From assembly GCA_965178125.1 (NCBI GenBank), contig OZ237735.1, positions 186,001-250,000 on the forward strand: a DNA stretch of 64,000 nt, written 5' to 3'. The notes under the pieces are model-generated. The model did no database searches. It was given only the letters and a program-made list of their open reading frames with translations, and was not told where the DNA came from. The stretch comes from Bilabrum cf. latius (lineage: Eukaryota). Made by a program: the position numbers and the translations under genes. Shown here in pieces: positions 12,317 through 34,628 of this stretch (positions are counted from its first letter, which is position 1; each line of letters starts with the position of its first letter).

Positions 12317-13897
12317 TCACACACCGGCCGGCATCACGTACAGCGGAGCATCAGACAGCTGCACGGTCACGCACTGCACCCCCTGCACCCCAGCGCTATC
12401 GCCCTGCCGCACAGCAGTGACCCCGCCCCGCACGCCAAGCCCCTCCCTATCGACCTTGCCCCCAAGTCCCTCGGCGCCCCCGCACGGCCCCGCGATCACT
12501 GCCCCCAGCGGGCCCCCCGTGTACGACAGCAGCAGGTACTTGCCCACGGCCCCCTGCAGCTGCACACTGGGGGCACTCGGGAGCGTCTCGTTCGAATTCA
12601 CGGGCATCCACGCGGCGAAGGCAGGCTGCTGCTTGCCCTCCAAAGGGGGGTACCTGAGTGCCACCCCGGGGGCGGTTGGGGTGCTCACGTTGAGGATGGA
12701 GGGGCGGCTGTACGGCCCCAGCTGGCGCAGGGCGGCCACTGCGGAGCGGTATGACGTCAGCGGCTGGAAGTCCGCGTGGGTCACGATGCCGAACCTGCAC
12801 TCTCTGTCTGTCGGGTCCGTGCAGTCCCTGTGCCAATCGTACCACACGTTCAGGGGCGAGCCCAGCGCGTGCAGGTAGAGCCACTCCCTGGCGATGTACT
12901 TGGACTGCGTCTCGTTGGACACGGGGTGCCAGCAGGACCCGAAATCGCAGGTGGTGTACCCCCACTCCCCCGAGGCAACGCGGGGCGCCTCTCCCTCACC
13001 GTGCCAGTGCGAGTCCACGAGCGCCTGCAGGCTGTGGAGCTCCTCCTCGACGTGCTCGGGAGGCGTTGACTGGTATAGGTGCTGCGTGACCACGTCAATG
13101 TACTGCAGGGGCTGCCCCGGACTGGCGAAGAACTCGTCCAGCCACGTGTAGAGCTCGTCGCCGTGCTGCGCAAGGGCGGGTGCGACCAGGCGCACCTTGG
13201 CCGTGGCGGGGTCGCTGCGAATGGCCTTGCCGATGGCCACGATGAGGGCAGCATCTGCCGTGCAGTTATTTGGCATTTTCTTCAGGTTTGGCTCATTCAC
13301 TTGCTCGAACCCATAGAATGCGTCGTGATCCTTGTAGCGCAGCGCCGCGGCGTGCATCACCTTTGCCAGGGCGTCGAGGCTGGATGGCTTGGTCGGGATG
13401 GGGTCATCAGGATACACGTGGGGATTTTGCGGGTGCAGAACCCCAGAGGTCTTGTACGTCGATCGACGCGAGCTTGTCGAACAGCTTATCGTAAAAGGAC
13501 CAATCGTACTGGCCTGGCGACTTCTCGATGACACCCCAGTCAAAGCCTACGACAGAAAGTGCAAATGGAAAAAGTATGCATCCTGGATCACACGTTCTAC
13601 TCGAGGCGGGCGAATCCCAGAGGGAAAAAAAAACTCTACGACTAGCTGCATGGATTGGTCAGAGTGTGTTACCACACCACGAGGATGCTACACTCATGGA
13701 TCCAATGTCACATGAGACTGACCTGTGCGAATCCTTTTGACCCCAAGGCCTTTGAATGAGTCGAACTCCACGTCGCTGGGCAGCTTGTCGTACAGTCCCC
13801 AATGGATGTTGATGGCTGCAGTTTCATGCAAAGTGAGGCTGTTATTCGCCGCACTTGCCGCAGCAAGTGCACTGAGTAGTATTATAAGCAGAGGCAT
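12317..13897 (-). pseudogene. Secreted clan GH-A (GH5/GH39-like) glycoside hydrolase, copy 1, with a +1 frameshift
   Basis: Near-identical to copy 2, with intron 13547-13722. Near 13440 it reads CTCTGGGGTTCTG versus CTCTGGCTTCTG in copy 2. The spliced length of 1405 nt is not a multiple of 3. It could be a G-run assembly error. Confidence 0.65.
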
Positions 13898-14073
13898 TCG
13901 GTGAATGGGCTGCCGAATCAACGAACTTGGAAAATGATGGAGGCCTCGGCGCCGTTGAATCCGGTATTAGCGCAGCCCGGCCGGGCTTCGCCGACGATAG
14001 ACAGCCGGATCAAACATGGGGATTGACACCCAAATGTACCAGAAACAGTGGGTTCGAAAAAGCAACAGGCACA

Positions 14074-15222
14074 TCAACCCACGTCGCTGTCTTTCGTCGA
14101 TGCACTCGTGCTCGCCAAGCCGCGGGCTGTGTGGTGCACTGTGCTCATGTGAGTCTTGAGATGGCCTGACACTCCAAACCGCTTCCCGCACACGCTGCAC
14201 TCGTGATTGCGCTCCCCGAAATGCACCAAGCCCACGTGAGTCTTGAGTGAGCCTGCCCGCCCGAAGCGCTTCCCGCACACGCTGCACTCGTGATTGCGCT
14301 CCCCAAAATGTACCGTGCTCATGTGCCTCTTGAGATTGCCTGACACTCCAAACCGCTTCCCGCACACGCTGCACTCGTGCTTGCGCTCCCCGAGATGCAC
14401 CAAGCCCATGTGAGTCTTGAGTGAGCCTGCCTGTCCAAAGCGCTTCCCGCACACGCTGCACTCGTGATTGCGCTCCACCAAATGCACCGCGCTCATGTGC
14501 CTCTTGAGATCGCCTGCCTCCCCAAACCGCTTCCCGCACACGCTGCACTCGTGATTGCGCTCCCCATGATGCACCGCGCTCATGTGCCTCTTGAGATGGC
14601 CTGCCTCCCCGAAGCGCTTCCCGCACACGCTGCACTCGTGCTTGCGCTCCCCATGATGCACCGTGCTCATGTGAGTCTTGAGTGAGCCTGCCTGCCCGAA
14701 GCGCTTCCCGCACACGCTGCACTCGTGCTTGCGCTCCCCGAGATGCACCACGGACACGTGCTGCCTCAAGCTCCACATCGAGCTCAGCACCTTCCCGCAC
14801 ACCTCACACTCATGCCCACCCCCACCTTCATTGGACCCTCCCTCCCTCCGGCGCCTCTTCGCCTCCCTTGCACCGGTCTCGCTGACCCCCCTGCCGCGCT
14901 TCTGCCCGGGCGAGTGAGGGGCTGGATGGGGCCCACTTGCACTAGGGATTGGCGATTGCGTACCCCTAGTGACCGGCTGATAGAATCTGCCAGTGCTGCC
15001 CGACCTCGCAGGTGCGTCTCCACCAACGCCAGCGCCAGTCGATGCTGCAGTCTGCCTGACAGCAGATTCAGCCGAGCTGCCCATCTTGTGCCTATCTTGC
15101 TGCTGGGACGACATAGCATTGTCAGCATCACTGCCCCAATCATCGTCACTGCTCTCGCTGCCAGTGCCATCGCTGTCGCTCACGAGGTCAATCACTTCTG
15201 GCTCGGCGTCCCTTCGCGCCAT
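14074..15222 (-). CDS. Tandem C2H2 zinc-finger array protein, 8 fingers (copy 2)
   Basis: Paralog of 10027-11829 with a near-identical N-terminus (MARRDAEPEVIDLVSDSD) and 8 fingers. Ends TGA. Confidence 0.9.
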   Translation of the reverse strand: MARRDAEPEVIDLVSDSDGTGSESSDDDWGSDADNAMSSQQQDRHKMGSSAESAVRQTAASTGAGVGGDAPARSGSTGRFYQPVTRGTQSPIPSASGPHPAPHSPGQKRGRGVSETGAREAKRRRREGGSNEGGGGHECEVCGKVLSSMWSLRQHVSVVHLGERKHECSVCGKRFGQAGSLKTHMSTVHHGERKHECSVCGKRFGEAGHLKRHMSAVHHGERNHECSVCGKRFGEAGDLKRHMSAVHLVERNHECSVCGKRFGQAGSLKTHMGLVHLGERKHECSVCGKRFGVSGNLKRHMSTVHFGERNHECSVCGKRFGRAGSLKTHVGLVHFGERNHECSVCGKRFGVSGHLKTHMSTVHHTARGLASTSASTKDSDVG

Positions 15223-15670
15223 TGTAGCAGTCAGCCTTGGCCACACGAGGACCGCAAACGTATTTGAAATAGTTCTGGGTGGCTTAGTTCCAAAAAGGGT
15301 CTAGGCCTCGGGACTCCTCGCGCAATAACTCGTTGGATCCGACCTCCTGTATGCACTTTATCACCCTTGTAGACAAGCCCAGCAACACAGTACGTGGTGT
15401 TGTACAAGTTCCGAATCAAAATGACGCCTAGTAGTGGTTTGAAAATGGGTTGACTGCAACAGCCAGTGACACTGGCCCTGCGTCTCAAGTCGACTCCCGA
15501 CGCCGCCGGCGGCGGAGCGGTTGCAACAGACAGGCAACTTGAAGATTCGGGACGCCGGGACGTGGGAGGGTGTAGTGAAGGCAGTAGGTCATTCACTGAG
15601 CCAAACAAATCCCATATGCAACCTGAATCATCCGCCTGCAAGTCCAAAGCAATCAAGGCCCCTTCCCAGC

Positions 15671-17439
15671 TCACACACCGGCCGGCATCACGTACAGCGG
15701 AGCATCAGACAGCTGCACGGTCACGCACTGCACCCCCTGCACCCCAGCGCTATCGCCCTGCCGCACAGCAGTGACCCCGCCCCGCACGCCAAGCCCCTCC
15801 CTATCGACCTTGCCCCCAAGCCCCTCCCTATCGACCTTGCCCCCAAGTCCCTCCCTATCGACCTTGCCCCCAAGCCCCTCCCTATCGACCTTGCCCCCAA
15901 GCCCCTCCCTATCGACCTTGCCCCCAAGTCCCTCCCTATCGACCTTGCCCCCAAGCCCCTCCCTATCGACCTTGCCCCCAAGCCCCTCCCTATCGACCTT
16001 GCCCCCAAGTCCCTCGGCGCCCCCGCACGGCCCCGCGATCACTGCCCCCAGCGGGCCCCCCGTGTACGACAGCAGCAGGTACTTGCCCACGGCCCCCTGC
16101 AGCTGCACACTGGGGGCACTCGGGAGCGTCTCGTTCGAATTCACGGGCATCCACGCGGCGAAGGCAGGCTGCTGCTTGCCCTCCAAAGGGGGGTACCTGA
16201 GTGCCACCCCGGGGGCGGTTGGGGTGCTCACGTTGAGGATGGAGGGGCGGCTGTACGGCCCCAGCTGGCGCAGGGCGGCCACTGCGGAGCGGTATGACGT
16301 CAGTGGCTGGAAGTCCGCGTGGGTCACGATGCCGAACCTGCACTCTCTGTCTGTCGGGTCCGTGCAGTCCCTGTGCCAATCGTACCACACGTTCAGGGGC
16401 GAGCCCAGCGCGTGCAGGTAGAGCCACTCCCTGGCGATGTACTTGGACTGCGTCTCGTTGGACACGGGGTGCCAGCAGGACCCGAAATTGCAGGTGGTGT
16501 ACCCCCACTCCCCCGAGGCAACGCGGGGCGCCTCTCCCTCACCGTGCCAGTGCGAGTCCACGAGCGCCTGCAGGCTGTGGAGCTCCTCCTCGACGTGCTC
16601 GGGAGGCGTTGACTGGTATAGGTGCTGCGTGACCACGTCAATGTACTGCAGGGGCTGCCCCGGACTGGCGAAGAACTCGTCCAGCCACGTGTAGAGCTCG
16701 TCGCCGTGCTGCGCAAGGGCGGGTGCGACCAGGCGCACCTTGGCCGTGGCGGGGTCGCTGCGAATGGCCTTGCCGATGGCCACGATGAGGGCAGCATCTG
16801 CCGTGCAGTTATTTGGCATTTTCTTCAGGTTTGGCTCATTCACTTGCTCGAACCCATAGAATGCGTCGTGATCCTTGTAGCGCAGCGCCGCGGCGTGCAT
16901 CACCTTTGCCAGGGCGTCGAGGCTGGATGGCTTGGTCGGGATGGGGTCGTCAGGATACACGTGGGGATTTTGCGGGTGCAGAAGCCAGAGGCCTTGTACG
17001 TCGATCGACGCGAGCTTGTCGAACAGCTTGTCGTAAAAGGACCAATCGTACTGGCCTGGCGACTTCTCGATGACACCCCAGTCAAAGCCTACGACAGAAA
17101 GTGCAAATGGAAAAAGTATGCATCCTGGATCACACGTTCTACTCGAGGCGGGCGAATCCCAGAGGAAAAAAAAAACTCTACGACTAGCTGCATGGATTGG
17201 TCAGAGTGTGTTACCACACCACGAGGATGCTACACTCATGGATCCAATGTCACATGAGACTGACCTGTGCGAATCCTTTTGACCCCAAGGCCTTTGAATG
17301 AGTCGAACTCCACGTCGCTGGGGAGCTTGTCGTACAGTCCCCAATGGATGTTGATGGCTGCAGTTTCATGCAAAGTGAGGCTGTTATTCGCCGCACTTGC
17401 CGCAGCAAGTGCACTAAGTAGTATTATAAGCAGAGGCAT
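15671..17439 (-). CDS. Secreted clan GH-A (GH5/GH39-like) glycoside hydrolase, copy 2, intact, 530 aa
   Basis: Signal peptide MPLLIILLSALAAASA. Intron 17089-17264 (GTCAGT...TAG) joins KRIRTG-FDWGVIEKSPGQYDWSFYDKL. Acid/base motif EQVNEPN and nucleophile motif SGEWGY. Spliced length 1593 nt; ends TGA. Confidence 0.85.
15790..16005. repeat. 27-bp coding minisatellite x8 (GGKVDREGL) in GH copy 2
   Basis: Unit CAAGYCCCTCCCTATCGACCTTGCCCC occurs 8 times. Copy 1 has a single unit near 12436-12462. Confidence 0.95.
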
Positions 17440-17937
17440 TCGGTGAATGGGCTGCCGAATCAACGAACTTGGAAAGTGATGGGAGGCTTCGGCGCCGTTA
17501 AATCCGGTATTAGGGCTTCGCCGACGATAGACAGCCGGATCAAACATGGTGATTGACACCCAATTGTACCAGAAACAGTGGGTTCGAAAAAGCAACAGGC
17601 GCATCAACCCACGTCGCTGTCTTTCGTCGATGCACTCGTGCTCGCTAAGCCGCGGGCTGTGTGGTGCACCGTGCTCATGTGCCTCTTGAGATTGCCTGAC
17701 ACTCCAAACCGCTTCCCGCACACGCTGCACTCGTGATTGCGCTCCCCAACATGCACCAAGCTCATGTGCTTTTGAGATGGCCTGCCCGCCCGAAGCGCTT
17801 CCCGCACACGCTGCACTCGTGCTTGCGCTCCCCGAAATGCACTGTGCTAATATGCGTCTTGAGTGAGCCTGCCTCCCCGAAGCGCTTCCCGCACACGCTG
17901 CACTCGTGCTTGCGCTCCCCATGATGCACGGTGCTCA

Positions 17938-19914
17938 GCGGCATACAGCAGGCGTAGCTCCGCCGTTAGCAATGCTGACTGGGGGCTAGAGTGCATCTCC
18001 CACTCTACTGAACCACTCTACTGCGTTTTATGCCGCTGCCTCTAGATCAGGTTGCTCACCCGTTTCCTATCGTGGGGTCGATGCCCCATGAGACCCTCGC
18101 TTGCCCCTGACCCCCGCTTGCCCCTGTTGGGGCTCAGACGCAGACCCCCGCTTACCCCTGACGGACCTCCGCCAGCAGAATGGTGCTGGCGGAGGTCCGG
18201 CTGTGTCCTTGCTCGCTTACAAGCCTGTTTGGATTCCGCCGCTGTTGTGGACGATCCTACTGCAGAGGAACAAGCAGCTGCATCGCCCCAATCGACGTCT
18301 TGCTGGCGGTCAACACACGGCGGATTGAGTCGCTTTCTCTTTCGTCCCGCTGACATTCCAGGTACAGTGCTGGTCTCCACCACATTGCCGGGAGCCTAAG
18401 ACTCAACGTCTCGGCCAGCCCCAGCAACAGCCCCACGCCCAGCGTCTCGGCCAGCCCCAGCAACAGCCCCATGCCCAGCGTCTCGGCCAGCCCCAGCAAC
18501 AGCCTCACGCCCAGCCCCACGCCCAGCAGGTATAACTTCCTTGCCGGCATCTGCGAGCGCATTGATAAGATAGTTCTTAGATGCCGTGTACAACGACGCG
18601 TGATCTCAGAGGCAAATTCGCGTGCATCCTGATTTCTACAGACCTTACCACACGAACAAGATGCAAAATGGTTCAGTATGCATTTATACAAGTTACTCCA
18701 CTCCATCAGGCTCCACTATTTACCACAAACGCAGGTTAATCGTCTCGATGTAATGACGGTGGCTTCTTGCTACCTTGCAAGGCAGGCGAACGCAATATTT
18801 GTCCAGAGCACAAATGCCTGATTGCTCTATGTAACAGCATTGATCTTATCTCGTAGTTTTGCGAGCTACTGTTGCAAAAATTGCTCAATTTTCCTGACTA
18901 CCAAGAGCGGTAGCACATCATCCGGATGTGCTCTTTCGTATCGAAGGAGAAGTAGCATGTGTTTTCTACTAGGCCGACCAATATCGATCTGATTTCGGCT
19001 AATAAACGAATTCAGCGACATGAATAATTTCCACGGGGGGATACTCTGCACTCTGATTCTTCTTGCTTTTTGAAGATGCGATCACTTCTAGTTATACCTC
19101 ATTCTAGCGCACAAAAGTGCACGTAACTATACCGGGGAGCTCGGCTCACCGGCACCCACAAATAATAGCAAAGAAGCATACAATAGTACCAAGTGAGAGC
19201 TTCCTAGCAAGACAATTGGACCAGATCAGTTGATCTAATCCGATTATCTTCTTGCCTCTCTCAACGGCTCCTTATTGTGTTCTTTATCTCCCTTTGAGAG
19301 AGGGCTGTGTGTTGTTGCCGTGTAGTGTCCGTTCAGCCACCTGGCTGGCTTCCCGGTTAGTGTGGGGCCGCCTCGGTGTGGACAGCCTGGCCTACCCCGT
19401 TGGTTTACGTTGTAGGTACTCCCTTCTTGTTGGTTTCTCCTGGGGCTTCGCCGAATGCACCCCAGGCTGCCTTTCGGCTCGCCGATGGCACCCGCTCACG
19501 CGGTTCGACGCGAACCACCACCACCTTGTGTAGTAAACAAGTGCAACCTAGAATGGGGCTCGTCACTGACCGCGCTACAGTTGACTAAACCTTGCGGTAC
19601 CGTTCGTCGTTGGGCTCATTCGGCCCAGTCTCCCCCAACCAGACGCACTATCCCAGCCTCCTACTCCCGCCCCTTCACTTCTCATCAACTCCGTGTGGCA
19701 GCCGGCTGACCCTTTAGCCGCCCGGTCCGGGCACAGTCCCGCGAACGTAGCTCTGGGAGCATGGGCAGCAATGCTGGCAGCCGTTATCGAATCTACCGCT
19801 AGTAAGCGGGACTTGTTCCGCTGCCAGTACACACCGCCAACAAACGCTCGGCGACGCTTGCGGTCTCGATCGTCGTGTCCACCACGTCCGCCTGGCAGGT
19901 CCGCGATTCCATAT
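17938..19914. other. Unrelated ~2-kb segment with a low-GC core (~18530-19290) interrupting ZF copy 3
   Basis: Similarity to the paralogs stops at 17937 and resumes at 19915. Two 60-nt lines in the core count at 37-38% GC, well below the GC-rich flanking genes. Confidence 0.7.
18408..18515. repeat. 36-bp tandem repeat x3
   Basis: GTCTCGGCCAGCCCCAGCAACAGCCYCAYGCCCAGC occurs three times. Confidence 0.9.
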
Positions 19915-20487
19915 CCCTAGTGACCGGCTGATAGAATCTGCCAGTGCTGCCCGACCTCGCAGGCGCGTCTCCACCAACGCCAGCGCCAGTCGATGCTGCA
20001 GTCTGCCTGACAGCAGACCCAGCCGAGCTGCCCATCTTGTGCCTATCTTGCTGCTGGGACGACATAGCATTGTCAGCATCACTGCTCCAATCATCGTCAC
20101 TGCTCTCGCTGCCAGCGCCATCGCTGCCGCTGTCGGTCACGAGGTCAATCACTTCCGGCTCTACATCCCTTTGCGCCATCGCAGTAATGAACACTGTCCG
20201 AAATGTGGATGCGCAATCCCTTGAAATAGTGTTGTATGGCTTTATTGCCAAGGGTCTAGGCTCGACTCCAAATGCTCCTTGCTCTCAAGTCTCGTCACCA
20301 GGCACGGCAATTTACCTTGCAGACAAACCCGGCGGCGTACAAGGCGGCGCCAAATCAGTTCAAAAGTTCTATGGACACCCAAGCTGATGAGCAAATGGTC
20401 TTTGAGAAGTGCCCTGTTTCGTTTGCCGGTTGTAACTGCGCACTGCATGATGACCACTTCTTGATGAGAGCTGGAAGAACCTGAACG

Positions 20488-23400
20488 ATGCGATTAGAAT
20501 ATGCTGTAGCTGCAGCAGTCGTCCTAGCGGGTACCAACGTGAGCGGCTGCTGGGTGCGCTTTGGGGCTCCCACGGCGGGGTCCATAAATGGGGTCGCACT
20601 GTGCAGGCCGACAGATGTCCTCAGCGAAGAGACAGCGGTGCTACCGGCATTGGGGATCTACGAAGTGCCTGCTTTAGTATTTCAGCTCAAGCTAGCTGGG
20701 GATAGATCCCAGTGCAGGTCAAGGCAGCGCCGGTGGGAGGATCACACGATGGGAGACTTTGAGACTGCATAGTTCAAAGTTGAGCACATGATTTGCAGTG
20801 GCGGTAGGCAGGATGGTCTATGCGCTGCATAGTTTCGCCTCGAAGGAGTCCCACCTTGCACGACGGTCCGGGCATCCGGTTCTATCGGCTCGGATGCCTC
20901 CCCAGCCAACACAACTTCTGTTGCTGCAAGCGGCTCTAAATCCAGCCCCAAGGACGGCAAGCAGTTCATAAATGCATCGTTTGCTACACCTGCTGAGGCA
21001 GGAAGCTACAGCTACCTGCGTTTCTTCGCGATGGCGTGTGCCAGGACAGGATCCTAGCACTCGGTGTTTCGAGCCATGGCGCGGGCGAGTGGCGACGCTC
21101 TCTTCGGGATCCACATGGGCGACGCCGTGTACTTGGATGAGAGAGCAAATTCCAGCGCCAGCTTCGTGCGCGCCTTCCGGTAGCAGCTGGAGAGCCCGAC
21201 CCAAGCAGAGATGCTCGCCCATCTGCCCATCGAGCACGTCTACTCGGACCACGACTTCGGAGGGAACAACGCGCACGGGGGCAGCGCGTCGGGGGACGCC
21301 GCCGTGGCCGCGCACATTGCCTTCCTGCCCGCCCCCGCCACCCCGACCCTCCCTCCGGCTGGAGACGCCGCCGGCTCCGAAGCACAGGCCTACCTGACGC
21401 ACCCGTGCCTGCACTGGAAGAAGGCGGGGCAGGTGCGCCTCGTGGTGCCAGGGGGGCCCAAGGGATAGCCAGGGAACAACGCCACCGTGCGGTTGCTGCG
21501 GAGGTCCTGGGTTGAGTCTGCCCCGGCCTGCAACTCGATGGTCCTGGAGGCCTCCTTGGCCAGGACCCGGCCGATTCAAGAGCAGGACGGGCCGGGCGGA
21601 CGCGTTGGGGCCAGTGCTGGCGCTGGCGGAGTTGCAGTCGGCCGGGCCGGCTCCACGGCATCGCGCGCGCACCGCGGCCCGCGAGGCATGCAGCGCGCCT
21701 TTTCGGTGAACAGAGTGCGTTTCATCGTGACGGATCTGAGGCGGTTCCGAGACAAGAACTACGCGCCTGATGCGGGATAGGACAAGGGAGCCGCCGCCAG
21801 CAGTGGGAGCACGGCCAGAAACATTAAGACCATGCTCGGGCAGGAGCAGAAAGAGTGGTTCCTCCGAGAAGTGCAGCGGTCCATCCTGTCTCATGTCCTC
21901 GTGGTGTGGGTGTCGGAGATCCCCTGGCTTTGCAGAGACGAGAAGTGGGGTTGGTTCAGGACAGAGAGGGACGAGCTCGTGCGGGCGCTAGTGGGCATGG
22001 GTGCGCATAGGCAGATGGTCATCCTGTCGGGGGATGCCCACATGCTGGGCATCGACGACGGGAGGCACTCCCCCGGGGGCATCCCCGTGCTGCACGCCGC
22101 CGCGCTGGACTCGCCCCCAAGTCTCAAAGGGGGCCCCTACTCCCACGGGGCCTCCCCTGGGCGGGGGCAGTTCGCGAGGCTGGAGGTGTGGGACGCGGGG
22201 ATCGATGTGGGCAGGATCCGAGAGGGCCTCCAGGAGGTGGCCAAAGAGGAGGGAAGGCGGTGGGCCTCCGTGGCGGACGCGGCCGCGGCCGCCGCCGAAG
22301 GCGAGATCAGCATATCCTTCGACGACGTGCCCCGATTCCATTGGGCCGACATGTACGCCAGCGGGGGTCAGGCATCGACCGGTGGCATCGACTCTCTCGC
22401 GGTGGACGGGACCTCCTCCATCCTGCCTGTTCCCTGGCACGTGATCCACGGGCAGCAGCACCGCGCCATGCTCACGGCGGGCGTGTGCCTCGAGTACCAC
22501 GGCTTTCAGGTGCATCGCAATGCGCTGCTGGGCGAGGCCAGCTCGGGTGACGTGGCGTAGGGGCAGCTGGGAGAGGATGTGCCGCCGGTGGCGGGGGCCT
22601 GGCACCCGGCGCAGGCCCCGCGCCTGGACAAGCCCAAGACCTGGGGGAATAAGAGCACGAGGGCATACCATGGAGTCTCCCGCGCGGTCCGTTATTCGAC
22701 CTGCGACATCCTCCCGAGCAAGGTGGCGGCCATGGCCACGGGCGTGAGGCTGCCTGCCTCTCCCGTGGCCCACGGCCGAGGCAAGGGGGAGGTACTCTCG
22801 AGGATGCTCCCGCCTCCCAGCCTCAAGGACAGAGTGAGGGGCACCTACGATTCGCCCCGCTCGGGCAAGCAGGCCGGGGCCGGCAGCCACGGCCCCATCC
22901 GATGGAAGGACTCGGGGCACACAGAGCTGGACGTGGACGAGTTCTGGGCCAGGGGAGGCGTCCGCGGGCTGGGACCAGACCTGCCCCTGGATGCCCCCGG
23001 GGCTCCCATGGACGGTGATGGGCTGTCCCCGCGGCAGCCGGGCATGTGGTCTTTCTCGCAGCTGGCCACTGCCGCGCGTCGGTGCGCTCTGGATGCTGAT
23101 GTGGGAGCCCGGTTCGCCCGCCGGATGCTCTGGAACCAGGCCTACGGCGGGCTCAGGGCGCTGCAGGACGGGCTGGCGGCAGCCATGGTGCAGGGGTACA
23201 GGCTGCAGTACTGGGTTTCCGGGGACCACACCTGCGCGGATGTGGTGCGAGCGTGCGCGACCGGTCGCCGAGTACCTACTGCCAGCTCGCCCGCCAAGCC
23301 GACGTCCTGGCAGAACACACTGGGCGAGCTGGCAGACCACGGCTGTGCGCCGAGGCCGCCCCTCGCCCTGTGGTCCGCGGCTGCGCGTGCTTCCGCGGCT

Positions 23401-25350
23401 CCCACCTTTGATCCCGTTGCCTTTGTGGATTCCTTGAATGGGTATGCGCTCTGGGCTACGTTCGGAGAGGACATCCTTGTCGCGGTTGCCCTTCTAGATG
23501 GCATTATGCTTGCCGCATGCGTGGGTGCAGCGGCCATTTGCTACGGCTGCTTCTGCATGCGGAAGAAGAGACAACCCCTGGTGCAGAAGGGCCGTGCGTC
23601 AGCTCAACAAACTCGCGAAGCGACGTCCGACAAGAGCAACGGGGTTGAGCTCACAGATGCGGGCAGCAACGCCGGCAGCACCAACCCCGGCGCCATGCTC
23701 GCGGTCGGGTTCATGTCGGGGACCAGCGCGGATGGTGTGGATGCAGCCGCGCTTCTGACCGATGGCCTCTTCCACACGCAGCTGCTGGCCACGGCAGCCC
23801 TCAGCTTCTCGGACGAGGAGCAGCAGCTGATCAAGGGAGCCATGTGGCAAGGATCATCAACCAGCGAGGCAGGGAGCAGTGCCAGCAAAAGCCCCAGCTT
23901 CGATGCCTCCTCGCCGCAGGCCTCTGCCGCCAGGGACATCGTCACTGGGGGATACATCGCTGCCGCACAGCGCCTCGCGGGCACACTGCAGCCAGCCATC
24001 GCGGAGTGGTGCGAGACTTGCTCGACGCAATCGGTGGAACAGCTGGTGCTGTCAAAGGAACGAGCGCACGTCGGCGCGATCCGGCGGGTGCTGCAAGAGG
24101 CTGCTGCTTTCAGTACCAAAGCCAAGGGCATGAAGCAAGGAGGAAGCAAAGGGAAGGCATCAGCGGGAGGCGGCAAACCAGACGGCTCCACCGCACCGAC
24201 ACCGCCGCAGACCGGCAGGAACACCGGAGAGGCCTCCACGTCCACGCCAACCCTCAAACTCACGCCAACCCTCAAACTCACGCCAACCCTCAAACTCCCC
24301 GGCGTGCTCCTGGGCATGCACGGCCAGACGCTGTACCACAACCCCGGGGTGGGAAGGTCGGTGCAGGTGGTTGACGCGCCGTCAGTGCTGGAGACATCGG
24401 GAGCGAGCGCGGGCGTGCACTCGTTCCGGTCTCTCGACGTGATGAGGGGCGGGCAGGGGGCGCCCCTGGCCCCCTTGTTCCACGCTGCCATCGCGGTGCA
24501 GGCTGCGGCCGAGGGCCGGCCCGGCGTGCGGCTGCCCCTCGCCGTTGTGAACCTCGGCGGAGTGGCCAACATCACGTTTGTTGGTGCACGGGCGGCCGAG
24601 CTGGTGGCGGGGTCCGCCTCGGATGCATCGCACGGCGGTGCGGGCGACTCACTCGTAGGGTTCGATTGCGGCCCGGGGATGGCCCTCCTCGACGACGAGC
24701 TGTCCGCGGCGGCGTGCTGCCCCTCCTCCTCCTCCCCATCCTCCTCGGTTTCGGTTTCGGTCCCTCGCTTCGATGAAGGGGGCTAGATCGCGATGAAGGG
24801 GACCCCCGATATGGAGGCAGTGGACGCCATCGTGGGGCACAATGCGGGCGGCGGAGGTGATGGCGATGAGGTGGGCGACGGTGCGGGGGGCTTGTTGTTC
24901 TTCCAGCAGTCCCCTCCCAAATCGCTCGACCGGAACCAGCTCAGAGCCATGGTGCGACGCCATTTGCCCGCACTGACGCACGGGGGCAGCGATTTCGATT
25001 CCGAGTTGGCGGACAGGTGCGCCACGCTCGCCGCCCTGACAGCGAGAGGGGTGGGGCTGGGCCTCGGGCACCTCCCTGCTCGGCCCGTGTGCGTCATAGT
25101 AGCGGGAGGTGGCAGGAAGCACGGCGCCGTGATGCGGGGGATCCGGAGGGAGGCCCAGGCCCAGGCTCACGGTGCGCGGGTGCTCACCGCCGAGGAGGCC
25201 GGGTGGGACGGGGACTAGCTCGAGGCGCAGTGCTTCGCATGGCTCGCCGTCAGGAGGATCCGCGGGCTGCCCACGAGCCTCCCGTGCACCACCGGGACTA
25301 GCCAGCCAACGTGCGGCGGGGAGGTGGTCGTTGCTAGCCGCGAGGAGTGA
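20488..25350 (+). CDS. PhoD-like metallophosphatase - transmembrane helix - anhydro-N-acetylmuramic acid kinase (AnmK) fusion, ~1620 aa
   Basis: One frame from ATG 20488 to TGA 25348, with TAGs at 20770, 20830, 21055, 21181, 21466, 21778, 22558, 24784 and 25216. PhoD motifs [43 protein letters not shown] segment [29 protein letters not shown] then RKKR. AnmK motifs [64 protein letters not shown]. Confidence 0.85.
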
Positions 25351-25546
25351 GTGACAGTGGGGAGAAAGCGGACGGCATCGCATGGCCGTCACCCGTCGAA
25401 GTGCGACGCGGCAATCGTTTGCGACCAAATCGTGCGACTACGGTTGCAACCACTTGTATTCGGTGGGCGTTGATCCATTCCCTATCCTTTCAGGGCCCAT
25501 TTTGTGATAGATTATATCCATTATTCATAAATTTGCGTACATATTC

Positions 25547-28500
25547 ATGCAACTTGTCATTGCAGTGTGTTGCGCGCTCTTTCTGGTCCAGATAGCTGAA
25601 GCAGTCATCCATGGTGCCCATCGGATTGAACAGGCGTCCGTCCTAGCTCAAGATATTGCCGAGGCTGAATCCATTGCAAGCAATGGCGAAGCCTTTGCGC
25701 CAGTCCGCGCCGGGTTGCCGTTGCAACGACTTGGCCCGAAAGATGCGCTCGGCGGAGGGGGGGCGTGGCTTCGGATGGACTCTGGAGCCACAACATACTT
25801 TGCTGGCGCGATCGGCTCCGATATCGGACTGGACGGAACGGTTGCAAGTACAGCCGGTAGTGTGCACATGCTCCAAACTTAGCTCCTATCAGCAGTCTCG
25901 GGCAACACGCCTGCCGCGCCGCTTCCTCGACAGATGGTATCCCACGCCGACACGCTGGCTGCAGACCAGAGGGGAAACCTGAGCACGCTCATAACCGCAA
26001 ATAATCTATTTGGAGCAGCTATTGCCCCGATCCCAGCCGAGGACAGGAGCGGGCTGGCGCGCGGAGGCGGCGCCGTCGCCGACACAAACGAGCTCACCCC
26101 CGAGCTCGCGATTGGCATCCCGGGCGCCAACGCGCTGGTGCTCGTCTCGGTGCACGAGACGTCCGGCGGGGTCATGCATGCGGGCAGCACCGTGCGCCTG
26201 TCCTCGGCGACGGAATCGGGGCTCTCCACCCGCACCCGCACGGGGGACGAGTTCGGCGCCAGTGCCGCTGCCCTGCACGACCACAGCAGGCTCACCGGCC
26301 TGCCTGTGATGGCCGGGGCCCCGCGGTAGGCCTTCTCCGAGTCAACCGCGGAGCAGATGGTCCTGGCGGTGGGGGCCCCTGGGGCGGGCCCTCGCCTCCC
26401 CCTGGACGTTGGGGGTGCAGATGGGTGCTCGTCACACTGCGGCGAGCTGTGGATCCTGAGGCTGCAGCGGTCAGACGCGGGGCACGCGCAGCCGGGGCTG
26501 CAGCCCGCGGGGAGTCCCTGGCGATGGGAAGTGACGAGCGAGTCAAGGATCGCGCCCTCCATGGCCGGTGCCCCCGCTGCCCTCTCCGCGCTGGCTGCCT
26601 CTGCCGGAAGCCAGCCCAGGTTCGGGGCCTCTGTAGCCTCGCTGGGGGACGTGGACAGCTCGGGGACGATGGAATTGGCCGTGGGAGCGCCGGGCGCAGA
26701 CGGCGGGGACGGAGCCGTGCTTGTTCTGTCCCTTTCGTCCAACGGGCAGCTCAACTCCGTGGACGCCACGCTCTCTCTGGCGGCCAGCGGGTCTGTCCTC
26801 GGGTCCCTGGGGCTGGGTGCCGCAGGATCGTCCGCCGCTCTGGGGTCTTCCGTCGCCGTGGTCCGTTCCCAGGACGTGGGCGTCTCGGATTCGACCCTGG
26901 TGCTCGCGGTGGGCGCCCCCGGAGCGGACGAGGGCCGCGGGGTGGTCGTGCTGGCGGTGCTGCAGGGGGCCGACATGACCCTCCCTCGAGCGGCATCGAT
27001 CGGCAGGGCCGGCGCGGGCGCCAGCATTGACTTCCCGGCGGATGCGGTGACGGGCGCTCGCCCGGGAGACCGTCGTGGCTCCTCGCTGTTTGCAGTGGCG
27101 TGGTAGGCAGCGGGAGGGGCCACGGACGCGGACGGTGACGCCAGCACGGCCGAGCTGCTGGTGGGGGCGGAGGGGCACGACGGGGGCTCGGAGGACTCGG
27201 GGGCGCTCTTCGTGGCGTCGATGACCTTCAGCGGTGTGACGAGTGGAACCCTGACCGTGGACGTGGAGCGGGTTCTCGAGCTGTCGGCGGATGGCGGGAT
27301 TGCCCGCACTGAGAGCTCTGCCGGCTCCGGGGACGGCGGTGCCCCGGGGGCTCTCTCCGCGAGCGGCGCGGCGTGGAGCGGCGGGCTGGGTGCTTCCTTC
27401 GCAGATCTGGGGAACACGGCTCTGGACGGGTCGGTGTCCTCTCGAGAGATCGCTGTCGGGATGCCCGAGAGCGGCGCGGGGGCGGCTGCAGCGGTGGGCC
27501 CCGGCCTGGTCGCCATGCCTGCGGGTGACTCCGCCTTGCAGTCACACGCCCCGCCCGACAGCACGGGGGCGGTGCTGATCGCTTCTCTCGTGCCCGCTGA
27601 CGTGAGCAGCGCGGGATACACCGGATCGCCTTCCACGCAGGCCGCGCCCCCTCGCGTGGTGTCCGTCACTGAGATCAGCGCGACGGCGGGCGGGCTCTCA
27701 ATGGCCGCCGTGCAGCACGCCCGCACGGCGGCCGCAACCGCACTGACGCCGCCCTCTGCCGCCTCTGCCCTGGTCCAGGACGAGGCCGGGTGGCCGCTGC
27801 TGCCGGGAGACGAGTTCGGGTCCAGCATCGCGAGCGCGGTGGTGAATTCCGACGACGGGACATCGTCCAACCACTGGCTAGCCGTGGGCGCGGCGGGTGA
27901 TGGAGGCCTGGGCAGGCAGGCCACGGGCAGGAGCACGGGGGCGGTGCACGTGCTGCGGATGACACCAGCCCCGGCTGGGATGCGGCACGTGGCATCGGCA
28001 CAGGCGTCTGCCGTGTTCCCAGAGACATCTGCCGGCGGCACTGCTTTCCACCAGTCCAGAGGGACCGCAGCTGGCGTGTCGCACCGGCTGCGTATCGCCA
28101 CTGACACGGTCCCGGAGCTGGCGGAGTATGCCGCCCGTGTGAAGGTGCTGGCGGACGACCGCGGGTTGGAGCGGTTCGCCTGGCGCTTCGGAGAGGCCGT
28201 GGCGCTTGGGGAGCTCCCGCGCGCGCCTTCCTCCTCGCCGCCGTCGATTGGGCAGCACTCCAGCTACACGGAGGAGGCAGCGGATCTGGCGCTATTCGTC
28301 GGTGTGCCCGGGGACTGGGACGAGGAGGGAGACAGGCGGGGCGAGTTTCGTGGCAGCCTGGTGGTCATCCGGCTGATTGCGGACGCAGACGGGGCCCCTG
28401 CGCTGCCGACTGCCGCGGCCGCAGCGGCAGCAGGCTTCGACCGCGTGATCCGCGTGGACGACGTGGCGATGAACTACAGCATGGGGCTCCAGGACAGAGA

Positions 28501-29872
28501 CTTCTTGGGTTCCTCCATCGCTCTCCTAGGGGACGTGAAGAGGACCGCGCACTCGCTGCAGGTGGCGCTGGGGGCGCCGGGCAGGGACGCTGGCGGGTCA
28601 CGCGGTCTGCAGAGCGCCCGCGGCGCGGTGTTCATCTTAACGCTGGGGCCCAACGGATACCCCGGGCTGCCGCGAGACACTGAAGTTCCCATCGATGACA
28701 CGTCCTCCAACCCTCCACCCATCGCCGGCGACCCGGATGCAGGATCGGTGGGTCGGCGGGACGTTCCCACGTCTCGTACGGTCACCCGGTACCCCGTCGT
28801 GCTAATCGACGGGAGCACCCCTAGCCTGGCTGGCAAGGTCACAACGGCGGCTTCTCTTGGCACGGCGCTGGCAGCGGTTGAAGTCGATGGGAACCCGCTC
28901 ACCGCTGAGTTCCTCGCAAGTGCACCGGGTGCAGGCGACCCCGAGGGCTCCGGAGTCGTGTTTCTGATGCGGTATGAGCCGGACAACGACGTGATTCGTC
29001 CGACGGACTACTTCAACGGGGCGACGCTGGAGCTGCTCGACGTCATGTCGGCGTCTGTTTCGGCCGTCTCAGGGACTGCGGCAGCCACGGCCGCGCTGCT
29101 GGGGCCCCAGCTAGAGATGGACGATGGGTTTGGGCACAGTCTTGCGGCGGTCGACGCGTCGGGGTCGGGATCCAGCCTCACGCTGGGCTCTTCGCAATCC
29201 TCGCCGGGGGACGGGACGAGGGTGTACGCCATCGTTGGTGCCAACGGACACGACGGCGCGTCGGGGCAGAGGCATGCAGGCGTGGCCTATGCCGTGGAGC
29301 TCCCGAGGACGGTACCTGCGGGCGTAGTGCCGTCCACCTCGCCCACCCCGAGCCCCACCCCGTCCATCACGCCGTCCCCGAACGCGTCCGTGTCGGCTCT
29401 CCCGGCCAACTGCTCGGACCCAGGACAGGTGCTGGCCAACCCTGAGTTTTGCGGGCAGTTCGAGGAGAACCCCGAGGACGCGGGGCTGACAGCGACGGAG
29501 CTGGCCGTGATCCTCGTGATCGTCTTTGTGATCCTCATCATTGTGGGCATCGTCGCGTACTGCCTGTACCAGCGGCACCAGAACATGGTCGAGGGGCGGG
29601 AGTACAAGGTCAAGAAGACCACGGACGAGGAGGCGCAGGCTTGGCTGTGGGGGGCCAAGCAGAAGGACGGGGCCGCACTCACGAACATATCTGAGAAGCT
29701 AGCGGAGGAAAAGAAGGGCATCAAGCGATCAGATGTTGGGGCTAGCATTCAGGCGGGCATCTATGACAACGTGGACGAGGAGGCGGCGGGCAGGGCCACG
29801 ACGACCGGACGGTCCAAGAGGAAGGGCAAGAAGCACAGGGCCGGGCGCAAGCGAGGGGCGGCGGCGGTGTGA
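25547..29872 (+). CDS. FG-GAP (integrin-alpha-like beta-propeller) repeat type I membrane protein, ~1441 aa
   Basis: Signal peptide MQLVIAVCCALFLVQIAEA. Many FGxS...LAVGAPG repeats, a PT-rich stalk, TM segment LAVILVIVFVILIIVGIVAYCLY, and a basic tail. TAGs at 25880, 26327 and 27104. Ends TGA. Confidence 0.85.
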
Positions 29873-30030: not shown

Positions 30031-33000
30031 TCAGTGTCGCTCCCTCTTCCCGCCAATGAGGCTCAAGAGGACTGGAATCACCAGCAGGGCATGAAACAGG
30101 CCCACGCTGAGCACCAGGAAGAGGCACACAAAGAAGCACCGGAAGATGTACGACGTGGACCCTGACAGCAGCGCCACTCCGAGCAGAGAGGACAGGCCTC
30201 CGTACAGCACCGGCCGTCCAAGGCTTACAAGCGACACGATCACGCGGGCTCTAGGCTCCGCTCCGCCCCACACCCACGTCTCTGGGATGTTGAGTGTCCT
30301 TTCCACCGCGCCGGCGAGCCCGCACATCTCCCCCCTCCCTGCATTGAGGCACGGCAGCGGCTTGCCCACGCCTGTTGGCCTGTCCCCATCTCCATCGCCA
30401 CTGATAACATAGTAAGGCGCGGCACTCTCGACGGCTTCAACTGCCGGTCTCCCGGCGGCAGCCGCGCTCCTCGCCCTCACTGCAGAGCCCCCCAGGTCCA
30501 CCCCGGCATCCTCACGGGGCGCGCTAGTTGCCCCTATTTCCTCTGGTTTCTCTTCTTCCCCGGCAGTACTGGAGGAACCGCTCGCGCCTCGACCGTTGAA
30601 GATGGCACCATTGGGCCCCTCAGCACCGTCAACCGCGCCCCCCGCTCTTCCATGCCCCTACCCCTGCCCCTCGCCACCAAGGGCATGGTGCTTCCTCTTG
30701 AGCATGAATGGTCCCGTCCACTCGTTGCCCCACGCCTAGTAGAAACCCTCGGCGGGGTGAGAGACCATGTCCAGACTGATGCCTAGCCCCAGGCATAGGT
30801 TGATTGCAGTCACCGAGTTCAGGTCGATGCCCTCCCCGCCCCACATGGCCATTCCGCCGAGCACCCCCACGTCGATGGACACGAGCATCATGCCCACCAG
30901 CAAGACAACAGGGAGGGAGGGCAGTAGCACGATCGCAACCAGGATCATGGCCGCAGCGCAAACCAGCAGGGTCTGGATGGTGGAGTACCTAACCGAGTTG
31001 AACTGCTCGAAGAACAGGAAAGGCTCGAACCACAGCCTCGCGGGAGCAGACGCTCGCTGTCCGACGGGCGCCCGGTGGTCTCCCACTCCTTCGTCTAAAG
31101 AGGCCCTCAGGTTCACCATTGCCTGGCCCATGTCCATTGATGAGTACAGCGGGGTCGTGCGCACCTCTACTTTGGAGGACACCACGCACGGCGCGCTCGT
31201 AGGATCCACGGATTCGTTCCTAGCCAGCGCTCCCTGCGCGGCACCCGCATCGGCGAGAAAGTTCGAAGCACCCTCGCTCCCCGGCACATACAGCCGCGAG
31301 CCATCCCCTGCCGGCGTGCCGTCTGCGTGCAAGTCAGCGGGATCCATTACCCCAGAGCAGACGGCCCGCCCTCGCGCCAGCGCAAAGCTCGGCCGCAGCA
31401 TCGGCCCGATGACATCCGTGCCCACGAGATCTGCCAGCACCTGCATGAACTGCGGCTGGGTCATGTCCTCGGGGTAGGATCGGATCAGGCGGAGCCCCTC
31501 AAACCACGGCAGCCAACTCTGGCCCACCCCGTTGCCGTCTAGCGAAGTGCCGAGCAGCTCGGCCAGCGAGCTGAGCCCGTCTCGGCAGGCCTGCAGCCGG
31601 AAGCAAGAGGGGGACGGCCAGCCGTCGGTCCCGAACCCAGCATCCACGGCAAATTCCACGGGCCGGCTTTCTACCCCCCGGAGTCTGGCGCGCATGTCCT
31701 ACGCACCATGCTGCTGGTCTACCGGAGAAGACAGGCCAACTAGCATCCTCAAATGGCCAGTGGCTGACTGGCCACGAGTCCTTGCTGCTGCTGCTGTTGC
31801 GATGCCTTGCAGCGCGTGTCTGGGATCCGTGCCGTCCGCACTGAGGTCAAGGGGGAGCTGCAGGCCCCCGAACTGCTCTTCCTGCGCCTCGAAGAAGTCG
31901 TGCACGTAAGAGTCGTCCGGCGCTAGCTGCTGCAGCTCCAGGTTTTCGCCAAGGTTGCGGATGGCTGACCCGAACACGGCCAGGTACACAACCCACAGCA
32001 CCAGCACTGCCACCCTCACCTCGGCTCGCATGAGGAACGGGGCTAGGCTGCTGGCACATGCCCTGTCGCACGCCCCCGACAGGACGGGGACGTCGTGGCT
32101 CTGCCCGTGCTGCGAGCCGCTGGGCTAGTCGTACAGTTGCTGCTCGTCCTCTCGCACGTGCTTTGCCTCAGTGATGGCAGACTCCAGAGACACGAACGGA
32201 GTGTTTCGGAAGCAGGTGCAGAGCAGCCTGTCTTCGGGGACGAATGATCGCCCGGGGAAGTCCATTCTCACCGCTACGTCCTACTGAAGCTGCCCGGTAC
32301 CGTTCATGTCTTGCTCGCCATCATCCTCTGCTACCAGCATGGGCCCGTCCTCTCCTTCCATCCCATTCAAGGATCCGTTGAAAGACCCCGGAGCCACCGC
32401 GGGAGCAGCGGCATCGTTGAGAGCATAGCCTCCATTGATGCTGGACCCGGCCTGATGACCTCGGTCGTGATCCTGATCCTCCTGCAACATGGCGTAGCTC
32501 TTGGAAACAGACCCGTCTCCATCAATGTCAGACCCAGGGGCACAGCAGCTGAAGGTACACGGCAGACGAACATCCCTGCTGCAATCAAAACGAGCGGTGG
32601 CGCCGACCACAGAGCCATCCCTCCGCACGGCCGGGTCCGAGCACGGAAAGCTGGCGAAACAGCCCCGCGGCTGCCCGTCGGCCTCTTGCACGCAACTCAG
32701 CATGCACGACGGACATATGGCCACGTCGTCATCGTGCTCCGGGCCCAGGCCGGCACCCACAGGGTGTGCCACCCGCCCGCAGCACATCGCCGATCGCCCC
32801 TGCGCCTCCCTGCGTGCGTCCAGCACCATCCAAGCCGTGAAGAAGGTGATCTGCAGCACGTAGTCACACAGGACTGTGGCCACTGCATACAGGCAAAAGT
32901 TCTGCACGCCCCGCTGCTGGGTGAGCAGCCCACCCACGGCGAACGCCAAGCAGTCCGTGATGCTCGTCACGGTGATCGCCACGCCGGCCTCGCGCATGGT

Positions 33001-34395
33001 GACGGCCAGCCGCTTGCGCAGGCCCCACCGCCTGGGCATGCGGCTGAGAGCTGCCTGCAGAACGAAGGCGTCATCGATGCCCAGCCCGATCGCCAAGAAG
33101 GGCAGACTCGCGTTCAGCAGCACGAACTTGATCCCCACGATGGCGCACAGCCCAAAGGCGAGGGGCACAGCCAGCCCCGCGCTGATGACTCCCGCCTGCA
33201 CCAGGGCCTGCCTAGAGACGAGAGTGTCGATCGAACCGGAGGCCATCGTGGCGAACATGCACATGAGTGCCGCGGTGGACACCACCAGTGGTATATCCGT
33301 TGAGCTGGACTCCTCGATGCCGTCGTCCAGCGAGCGCCCGGCGAGGTAGACCAGCTCCACGCCCACCCGAGGTGCTTCTGCGCTCAGCTTGGATGAGCTG
33401 GCCGAGCTGCTGGAGTCTCCGCCTGATAGTGGCGATGCCACTGGGAGCGCAGGGAGAGAAGATCTCTGCAGCTTCTTCCTCCACTTCTCCATGGTCTCGA
33501 TGAAGCCGAGCTCCCAGTGCTGCACCCGCATCGAGGCCGGCGACCTGATCGAGCCTGTCGGGCCGTCCCCACTCCCGCTGATCGGGTCCGTCCAGTCGTC
33601 CAGCGTGACCTAATAATCCATGCGGAGTGCACTCGCCCCCACCATGAGAGCATCTCCCTCGAGCTCGGGGCGGCCCGCAGACATTGGCAGGTAGGCCACC
33701 GCGTGGTTTGCGTCCTGCTGCAGGCACACCGGGAAGGTGGCCGGAATCGCAGCCTACGCGGAATCGGTGCCGGGCAAGTAGCCACCATCTAGAATAGAGT
33801 CCAAATTTTTCCTGGCGTCGTCGACAACCGAGCTATTGAATGCGCACAGAGGAGCTCCACTAGCAGAGCAATCGCCACCGCTGCCAGGCTGACACACATC
33901 ACGCATTGTGGTCTTTGGTATCTCGCCAGCAGCTTGCACTGCAGTGGCCAATACATCATCGTGAATTGCCATTGCTAACGCAATCCCTTCCGCTGTCCAT
34001 ATCCCACCAGAGAACCCCTCTGCATCTTCTGTCTTCTGCACATTTCCCGCACCCTGTATTCCTGTCGATTTCAGGATCCAAGACTCAGCCCTGGTGCTAT
34101 TGTAGGGAAACAAAACTCGCACGACTTTGCGGTCTACCTTTGCGCGGGACAGTTTCGGGCTGAATAGGTATTGCGAGGAGGTGGCCACCTCCTGGTGGAG
34201 CATCCCAGCGCTACCCAGCATCACCACCAATAGGCACGAGACAATTACGCACCAAGGGCGCTAACCAACCGCAATGTACTCGCCCCATGCCTCGAACCCG
34301 TGCTGTATGGAGTGCTTTACGATGTGGGAAGCCTTGCTCCAGCCCGGGGGGCAGCAGCCGCCGTCGCGTGGATGCGCAGCGATTTCCCGCAGCAT
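30031..34395 (-). CDS. Patched/NPC1-family sterol-sensing-domain (RND) membrane protein, ~1454 aa
   Basis: ATG 34395. SSD motifs LPFLAIGLGIDDAFVL and EAGVAITVTSITDCLAFAVG. Second half has LAPDDSY, FLFFEQF, LGLGISLDMVSH, SYIFRCFF, GLFHALLVIPVLLS. TAGs at 34261, 33754, 33610, 32281, 32125, 31699, 30736 and 30658. Ends TGA. Confidence 0.9.
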
Positions 34396-34628
34396 TGGCA
34401 ACTGCCGAATAACAATTGGAGTAGCAGGCTCTTTAGCTTGCGCAAAGGGGCACGCAGGGATCGCTCAAAGGACACGAAGTGCTCCTGTGTTCCTGTCACG
34501 CTGACGACGATTCGGCAGCTGGTTGGACGCGTGCAACAGAACAGTGTGACGTGTCGTCATCGCGTGTTCGCCCCGCTCCTAGAAGGAATCCGAGCGCTGG
34601 AGGTCTCGTTTCATTGGATTCAAAGCAC

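Follow-up and report, generated by a model that had tools for sequence, protein, structure and literature searches.

Bacterial AnmK (PF03702; structures 3cqy and 3qbw) is a soluble, cytoplasmic enzyme of approximately 370 residues that carries the ASKHA-type motifs GTSxDG, HGQT, GGQGAP, NxGGxAN, DxGPG, and GGG. The fungal levoglucosan kinase (4zxz, 4yh5) belongs to the same superfamily, performs the same type of reaction, and is also soluble. PhoD (PF09423) is a metallophosphatase represented by the B. subtilis enzyme (2yeq), and its bacterial relatives are fused to PAP2, to prolyl oligopeptidase, or to nothing. Bacterial PhoD uses a twin-arginine translocation (Tat) signal, and the enzyme of B. 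subtilis acts on teichoic acid. In this work, 64,000 nucleotides of DNA from Bilabrum cf. latius (assembly GCA_965178125.1, contig OZ237735.1, positions 186,001–250,000 of the forward strand), hereafter the window, were analyzed, and the subject is a gene at window positions 20488–25350 (+) that very probably encodes PhoD, a transmembrane (TM) helix, and AnmK in a single reading frame. The encoded protein shares with bacterial AnmK the full-length domain and these motifs, whereas here the domain forms the C-terminal, predicted cytosolic part of a 1620-residue membrane protein and contains two inserts. With PhoD it shares the fold and putative metallophosphatase motifs, but it begins with a predicted eukaryotic Sec-type signal, has large loop inserts, and continues into a 410-residue stalk, the TM helix, and the kinase. 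The similarity to levoglucosan kinase is weaker (E 5e-8) than that to AnmK (E 1.7e-20). A bacterial-type AnmK has likewise been kept in other eukaryotes. In ticks, the acquired bacterial anmK was reported to keep its kinase activity on 1,6-anhydro-N-acetylmuramic acid (anhMurNAc) (bioRxiv 10.64898/2026.03.13.711553), and in anaerobic ciliates, anmK and murQ were proposed to degrade peptidoglycan (PMC13198582). In the available parts of these two reports, in which the action on a cell-wall sugar is thus shown or proposed, neither a phosphatase nor a TM part is described together with anmK, in contrast to the protein of the window.

The enzyme families involved are known, and their domain architecture in this gene is new. 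The preliminary description of this DNA, made from the sequence letters, had called the combination of PhoD and AnmK undescribed, and it was indeed absent from both protein and literature searches. None of the 46 PhoD matches carried AnmK, and PhoD was not among the Pfam domains of any of the four matches to long AnmK proteins (891–2835 residues), although the sensitivity of these searches was limited. The literature search, which did not cover supplementary files, returned no paper that combines the two. The long AnmK fusions (P0001–P0004, 26–33% identity) join AnmK to a SIS/MurQ-like domain, to tetratricopeptide repeats (TPR), or to an ornithine/diaminopimelate (Orn/DAP) decarboxylase, and none of them lists PhoD. 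Within this set, the SIS/MurQ-like fusion has 1065 residues and the TPR fusions have 896–1076 residues, and these three (P0001–P0003) are 32–33% identical to the AnmK domain of the window. Gene callers that apply the standard code cut the gene into pieces, so that present-day protein databases do not show the architecture. Standard-code gene calling likewise fragments the genes of other organisms in which TAG is recoded, and this may conceal additional members.

The open reading frame (ORF) at 20488–25350 (+) comprises 1620 codons followed by a TGA stop at 25348–25350 when TAG is read as a sense codon. Its nine in-frame stops are all TAG (nucleotides 20770, 20830, 21055, 21181, 21466, 21778, 22558, 24784, and 25216), with no in-frame TAA or TGA anywhere within the ORF, and its first ATG is directly preceded by an in-frame TGA (20482–20484). 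With translation table 11, in which TAG is a stop, the region is split into pieces, and the largest of them is an ORF of 735 residues at 22579–24786. The stretch 22561–24786 is free of every type of stop, as had been described for the segment from 22579 through the TM helix into AnmK. The preliminary description had also joined a signal-like N-terminus, PhoD, a TM helix with a basic RKKR stretch, and a complete AnmK domain in one frame that cannot be seen under the standard code. The ORF, the Pfam matches, and the hydropathy all agree with this order of parts, and the gene is readable only with TAG as sense. The length of the ORF was rejected as an argument for a gene, because antisense frames in the GC-rich window (approximately 65% GC) also reach 960–1367 codons if only TGA and TAA are taken as stops. 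On the other hand, a codon-usage score that was trained on six other ORFs of the window and computed in 240-nucleotide steps preferred the target frame at most positions between approximately 20610 and 25290. Only the steps at 21448 and 23248 were won narrowly by an antisense frame; the score was weak at residues 1–120 and dipped at residues 921–1000. The GC content was 0.58–0.70 across the TM and spacer region (23380–23740), compared with 0.48–0.57 in six intergenic spacers. The window also contains eukaryotic genes for a papain-type cathepsin, WASH complex subunit 7, C2H2 zinc-finger proteins, a Patched/sterol-sensing-domain protein, a protein with leucine-rich repeats (LRR) and a ubiquitin-like part, and a glycogen debranching enzyme. 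The locus is a genuine intron-free gene of a GC-rich eukaryote in which TAG encodes Gln, and its product is very probably one polypeptide of approximately 1620 residues.

The same architecture was found in relatives. The first is P0005, a standard-code ORF of 715 residues from a Logan contig of a close relative, which is 86% identical (631/734) to residues 701–1432 of the window protein and contains no stop. It runs from the linker through the TM helix, a basic RRKR, and the spacer (with a deletion of three codons) into AnmK, of which it includes the first half, and it ends at the position of the window TAG at codon 1433. The C-terminal piece of PhoD from a close relative was found as P0171, for which the longest contig on record has the same length (7274 nucleotides) as for P0005, and two linker fragments (P0172 and P0173) with 48% identity to the window led to L001, a contig of an independent (JGI) metagenome. 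The frame of L001 (1783–6693, +) has 1645 codons with nine TAG codons at other positions and a TGA stop, and it encodes a signal peptide, PhoD, the linker, the TM helix, RRKK, the spacer, and AnmK in the same order as the window. The two proteins are 54% identical along their full length, the N-terminus and the start Met included, and an in-frame stop stands directly upstream of the start in both. The preliminary description had named two separate genes in relatives as an observation that would speak against a fusion. Both P0005 and L001 are continuous, and no stop separates the upstream coding region from AnmK in any of the three lineages. Between the window and L001, the synonymous sites are saturated (proportion of synonymous differences, pS, approximately 0.7). 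The ratio of nonsynonymous to synonymous rates (dN/dS) was 0.21–0.24 for the linker and 0.14–0.28 for three segments of the AnmK core, and it rests on these two regions, since dS was not computable for the spacer, the TM helix, the N-terminus, and PhoD (pS at least 0.75). For PhoD, the proportion of nonsynonymous differences was 0.21 against a pS of 0.77. The fusion is under purifying selection, and at least three lineages within a single clade have retained the PhoD-TM-AnmK architecture.

All long ORFs of the window carry in-frame TAG (19/4238, 7/2550, 8/1478, and 9/1622 codons), lack in-frame TAA and TGA, and end at TGA. In six reference ORFs that are either supported by Pfam or very long, there were 3.3 TAG, 0 TAA, 34.9 CAG, and 5.6 CAA per 1000 codons. 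If TAA encoded Gln, approximately nine in-frame TAA would be expected from the CAA/CAG ratio in the approximately 17,000 codons of these reference ORFs, and none was present. The identity of the amino acid is shown by the relatives. In L001, a TAG stands for the Gln of the AnmK motif HGQT, a column that is Q in the window and in 93 of 119 homologues and H in the other 26. Moreover, at window residues 95, 327, 657, and 850, a TAG in one of the two sequences (window or L001) is paired with a Q in its counterpart, and P0171 stops just short of the position of window Q674. Thus, TAG is a sense codon for Gln in the nuclear code of the organism. A scan of the 64-kb window for tRNA genes returned none, and hence no suppressor tRNA was seen there. 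In the preliminary description, a ciliate-type code had been hinted at; the reading of TAG as sense held, while TAA is never found in frame, and the code looks like a reassignment of TAG only in a GC-rich, intron-poor eukaryote. By comparison, both UAR codons are reassigned to Gln in Amoeboaphelidium, according to the available part of the report (PMC5304391).

The N-terminus (residues 1–20; 20488–20547, +) resembles a signal peptide in its hydropathy, as judged by eye. It is moderately hydrophobic (residues 5–23, Kyte-Doolittle 1.49), the start Met and an LAG..SGCW.RFGAP block align with L001, and the hydrophobic region of L001 is the more hydrophobic of the two. It is followed by a Cys-rich region (residues 21–170; 20548–20997, +) that contains TAG codons 95 and 115 and is 42% identical to L001, with C21, C39, C76, C103, C112, and C124 conserved. 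The model of this region is partly strand-rich and of low confidence, and its codon signal is weak. The PhoD-like metallophosphatase domain occupies residues from approximately 171 to 585 (20998–22242, +), as indicated by Pfam PF09423, by homologues, and by the AlphaFold2 (AF2) fold. The Pfam match reached 37.2 bits (cut-off 27) at residues 410–519, and that of L001 reached 38.0 bits; the NCBIfam PhoD equivalog was far under its cut-off (15.3 vs. 1000). The closest relatives among the 46 matches are approximately 40% identical over approximately 180 residues; the named ones come from actinobacteria, and PAP2 is a frequent fusion partner. The motifs of the domain, SGDAHM among them, align with the consensus SCARTGSNG, GDxHY, WDDHDYGxND, and SGDAHM of 28 bacterial relatives. 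At the level of the sequence alignment, these putative metal-ligand motifs do not differ between the window and L001, whose PhoD domains are 69% identical. The AF2 model of the ectodomain was built on a 34-row alignment. For residues 170–580, its confidence (predicted local distance difference test, pLDDT) was mostly 72–94 per block of ten residues, except in two low-confidence loops. The best Foldseek match to the PhoD model was B. subtilis PhoD (2yeq_A; E 1.2e-9, template-modeling score on the target 0.43); purple acid phosphatases and SMPDL3 came next.

Between PhoD and the membrane lies a lineage-specific juxtamembrane ectodomain or linker (residues 586–995; 22243–23472, +), which belongs to no known family and was recognized in relatives only. 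In 1.84 billion representative proteins, it gave four matches, all of them fragments of close relatives. The ESM Atlas gave no lead for the linker, and the PDB gave no sequence match for the ectodomain. The linker is 50–53% identical to L001 and approximately 92% identical to P0005. Most of its model is of low confidence, and residues 600–855 are too uncertain to interpret; residues 856–925 are modelled as a helical hairpin. Many Cys residues and an NSS sequon of the ectodomain are conserved in the alignment of the window with L001.

The single TM helix (residues 996–1023; 23473–23556, +) is indicated by hydropathy and by the model, and its position is kept in P0005 and L001. Residues 996–1014 have the highest Kyte-Doolittle value of the protein (2.42), the hydrophobicity extends to residue 1023, and this is the only strong hydrophobic segment; in the model it is part of a helix at residues 986–1026. 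Acidic residues precede the helix and basic residues follow it. The sequence then continues with the basic stop-transfer MRKKR (residues 1024–1028) and a variable spacer (residues 1029–1068), which together span 23557–23691 (+). This spacer of approximately 40 residues is of low complexity, only 21% identical to that of L001, and different in length, as is expected of a flexible tether, and it is open and in frame in the three lineages. A type I protein, with the phosphatase outside or lumenal and the kinase cytosolic, is thus predicted from these sequence features. The topology that had been proposed for the protein fits the signal-like N-terminus, the one TM helix, and MRKKR.

The AnmK domain (residues 1069–1620; 23692–25347, +) was identified by Pfam, NCBIfam, PDB, and its motifs, and it is interrupted by inserts at residues 1121–1269 and 1406–1470. 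The first insert contains a tandem repeat of three TPTLKL units (24244–24297, +). The Pfam match (PF03702) reached 126.4 bits (cut-off 24), and that of L001 reached 151.9 bits over profile positions 90–364 of 367. The best PDB matches were the AnmK structures 3cqy (E 1.7e-20) and 3qbw (4.6e-18), with levoglucosan kinase at only 5.3e-8, and the N-terminal GTSxDG part of the domain also aligns with the AnmK structures. The closest database proteins besides P0005 have approximately 370 residues and 36–42% identity, and the named ones are alphaproteobacterial; the nearest relatives of the two domains fall in different phyla. The motifs are present in both the window and L001 (in the window as GTSADG, HGQT, GGQGAP, NLGGVAN, DCGPG, and AGGG). 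Among 119 AnmK homologues, 96 columns show a conservation of at least 90%; the window agrees with 81 of them and L001 with 82, and 11 of the 15 mismatched columns have the same residue in both orthologues. The domain, which had been described as complete, scores above the Pfam cut-off with all motifs intact, and it would apparently be an active kinase.

Four sequencing runs from three studies were compared with the window. One (X1) is DNA-like, and three (X5–X7) are RNA-like, as inferred from their contig ends and depths. The X1 contigs are colinear with the window, as are those of all four runs, and no joint was present in any of them within 19600–26200. Thus, the TAG codons are not spliced out. 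In X5, the target is covered by contigs at 20466–24272 (depth 20.8) and 24268–25352 (depth 19.1). This coverage is unspliced from 22 nucleotides before the ATG, across the PhoD/AnmK junction, to 2 nucleotides past the TGA, and the gaps on both sides (20370–20465 and 25353–25498) coincide exactly with intergenic spacers. The break at 24268–24272 is an artefact of a repeat and not a transcript end, since it is common to X1 and X5 and lies in the three TPTLKL units. For the next gene, the X5 contig starts at 25499 with a depth of 102, and those of X6 and X7 start at 25488 and 25499. This gene is approximately five-fold deeper than the target in X5–X7, whereas the depths in X1 are 12.4 and 9.15. 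Runs X6 and X7 are of low depth, and the parts of the target that they leave uncovered were not counted as evidence. If the contig ends are transcript ends, the untranslated regions are extremely short, with 22 nucleotides at the 5' side and 2 nucleotides at the 3' side of the target and 48–59 nucleotides at the 5' side of the next gene. Such extremely short untranslated regions are known from other eukaryotes that reassign stop codons.

Upstream of the fusion gene, a glycosidase gene of the GH-A clan (glycoside hydrolase families GH5/GH39-like) lies at 15671–17197 (−). It has a weak Pfam Cellulase match and contains a GLGGKVDRE unit repeated approximately eight times. Its product is 61% identical (252/413) to that of a gene at 128–1459 (−) of L001, which adjoins the fusion gene there on the upstream side in divergent orientation, with approximately 320 bp between the start codons. 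This shared GH-like neighbour indicates that the two loci are orthologous, and the glycosidase gene and PhoD-TM-AnmK may be linked in function. In the window, fragments of zinc-finger genes are inserted between the two. In the region 10027–20179 (−), a unit made up of a C2H2 zinc-finger gene and a GH5/GH39-like glycosidase gene is repeated. The region holds zinc-finger genes at 10027–12030 and 14074–15354 (−) and a second glycosidase copy with a weak Pfam Cellulase match at 12317–13690 (−); zinc-finger fragments at 17604–18602 and 19685–20179 (−) follow the repeats. The X1 depth reaches 73 at 19600–19820, as in a multi-copy family. The gene downstream of the target (25547–29872, +) encodes 1441 residues with a signal-like N-terminus, a C-terminal TM segment, and a basic tail, without a Pfam match; its repeated motifs of the LAVGAPGAD type are only questionably FG-GAP/integrin-alpha-like. 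A giant ORF at 46879–59592 (+) has 4238 codons with 19 TAG and no Pfam match in its first 1500 residues. By eye, it appears to contain N-terminal LRR/F-box-like repeats, IQ-like basic repeats, and MORN-like repeats. Other long ORFs with TAG are located at 37547–45196 (+) and 30031–34464 (−).

Taken as a whole, the best explanation, with the type I topology and the catalytic roles of both domains included, is considered probable. A cleavable signal peptide would send the N-terminal part of approximately 975 residues (the Cys-rich region, PhoD, and the stalk) across the membrane. The helix at residues 996–1023 with MRKKR would anchor the protein, and the flexible spacer of approximately 40 residues would tether the AnmK-family kinase at the cytosolic face. 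From what is known of its family, the PhoD ectodomain would hydrolyze mono- or diesters of phosphate, either extracellularly or in the endolysosomal lumen. The kinase would open a 1,6-anhydro sugar and phosphorylate it at position 6 with ATP upon its entry into the cytosol, and the sugar would thereby be trapped at the membrane. Given that the domain resembles bacterial AnmK more closely than levoglucosan kinase, anhMurNAc would be the likeliest substrate. The protein may serve to regain phosphate and amino sugar from the debris of bacterial cell walls, a role that is plausible and that we propose tentatively. The preliminary description had likewise suggested the salvage of phosphate and anhydro-sugars from digested bacterial prey, with food vacuoles as the candidate location. 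With similar reserve, it may be imagined that PhoD strips phosphate from wall polymers such as teichoic acids in a digestive compartment, while the tethered kinase captures the sugar of anhydro-muropeptides. Together with the glycosidase, this would form a mini gene cluster for bacterial or algal walls that arose from two separate bacterial gene acquisitions.

Several points weigh against this explanation. Lysozyme-type hydrolysis gives MurNAc and not anhMurNAc, so that prey would be a poor source of substrate without the action of a lytic transglycosylase, and a bacterivorous life of the organism is an assumption. The best NCBIfam AnmK match (NF007141, residues 1274–1616) reached 252.9 bits, which is under the equivalog cut-off of 352; this score is lowered by the long inserts. 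The two inserts themselves (approximately 150 and 65 residues) are of low complexity and poorly conserved. In PhoD, the Pfam match is limited to profile positions 154–265 of 343, and GDAVY stands in place of the bacterial consensus GDxHY. The signal peptide was recognized by visual inspection. As to the continuity of the gene, a spacer of approximately 40 codons would be open by chance with a probability of approximately 0.6 per lineage, as estimated from approximately 68% GC. Furthermore, none of X5–X7 is registered as RNA, X5 was automatically typed as 'probably DNA', the RNA nature of X5–X7 being an inference, and a contig is no proof that one transcript molecule spans it. Lastly, Met 1070 (nucleotide 23695) lies six residues before MSGTS, as does the start of 15 of 115 stand-alone AnmK proteins, in which the median distance is 12.

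Among the alternatives, the one that survives best accepts the fusion as real and places PhoD at the plasma membrane as an ecto-phosphatase for organic phosphorus. AnmK would then act on another anhydro sugar such as levoglucosan, or it would have a regulatory or scaffold function, without any link to the cell wall. The relatives of PhoD are general phosphatases and phosphodiesterases that are often fused to membrane modules such as PAP2, and levoglucosan kinase is a member of the AnmK family that was itself matched by the domain. The NCBIfam score under the equivalog cut-off would also suit this alternative, and the conserved GH5/GH39-like neighbour is more suggestive of plant or algal glycans than of murein. 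However, with its E value of 1.7e-20 and its 36–42% identity to alphaproteobacterial AnmK, the domain is far nearer to AnmK than to levoglucosan kinase, and it keeps 81 of the 96 AnmK-conserved columns. We therefore regard this alternative as rather unlikely.

Considerably less likely is the formation of two products, in which a soluble AnmK arises either from an internal promoter or start at Met 1070 or by proteolysis in the spacer, so that the tether would be functionally minor. Since Met 1070 sits at the usual position of an AnmK start, an extra internal start may exist in this species, and the low complexity and poor conservation (21%) of the spacer would fit cleavage there. The X7 pieces at 23432–23689 and 23708–23861 leave a gap of 18 nucleotides at this place, but at a depth of approximately 3 this gap is uninformative. 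In L001, on the other hand, a Leu occupies the position of Met 1070, and the nearby Met codons lie either inside the conserved MSGTS or 22 residues upstream of this position, so that the separate AnmK start near 23695 that the preliminary description had considered has no counterpart there. Moreover, the X5 depth is equal on both halves of the gene (20.8 vs. 19.1) without a visible surplus of AnmK transcript, and the link between the frames has been kept across saturated divergence. An artefact, that is, a mis-assembly, a lost stop, a pseudogene, or bacterial DNA joined to eukaryotic DNA, might be suspected from the mainly bacterial relatives of both domains and from the chance long frames of this GC-rich DNA, but it is effectively refuted by the same architecture in three independent assemblies (the window, the Logan contig, and the JGI metagenome contig), by the colinear contigs of four runs from three studies, by TAG=Gln usage and codon bias like those of the neighbouring eukaryotic genes, and by the purifying selection at a dN/dS of approximately 0.2.

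For gene prediction, the locus is a practical warning, as P0005, P0171, P0172, and P0173 are all pieces cut by standard-code gene callers. The fusion would add a clear case in which two bacterial-type domains were combined and selectively kept in a eukaryote. If the proposed explanation with a lumenal or external PhoD and a cytosolic AnmK is true, hydrolysis on one side of the membrane and metabolic trapping on the other would be united in a single polypeptide, which would represent a new organisation of nutrient salvage.

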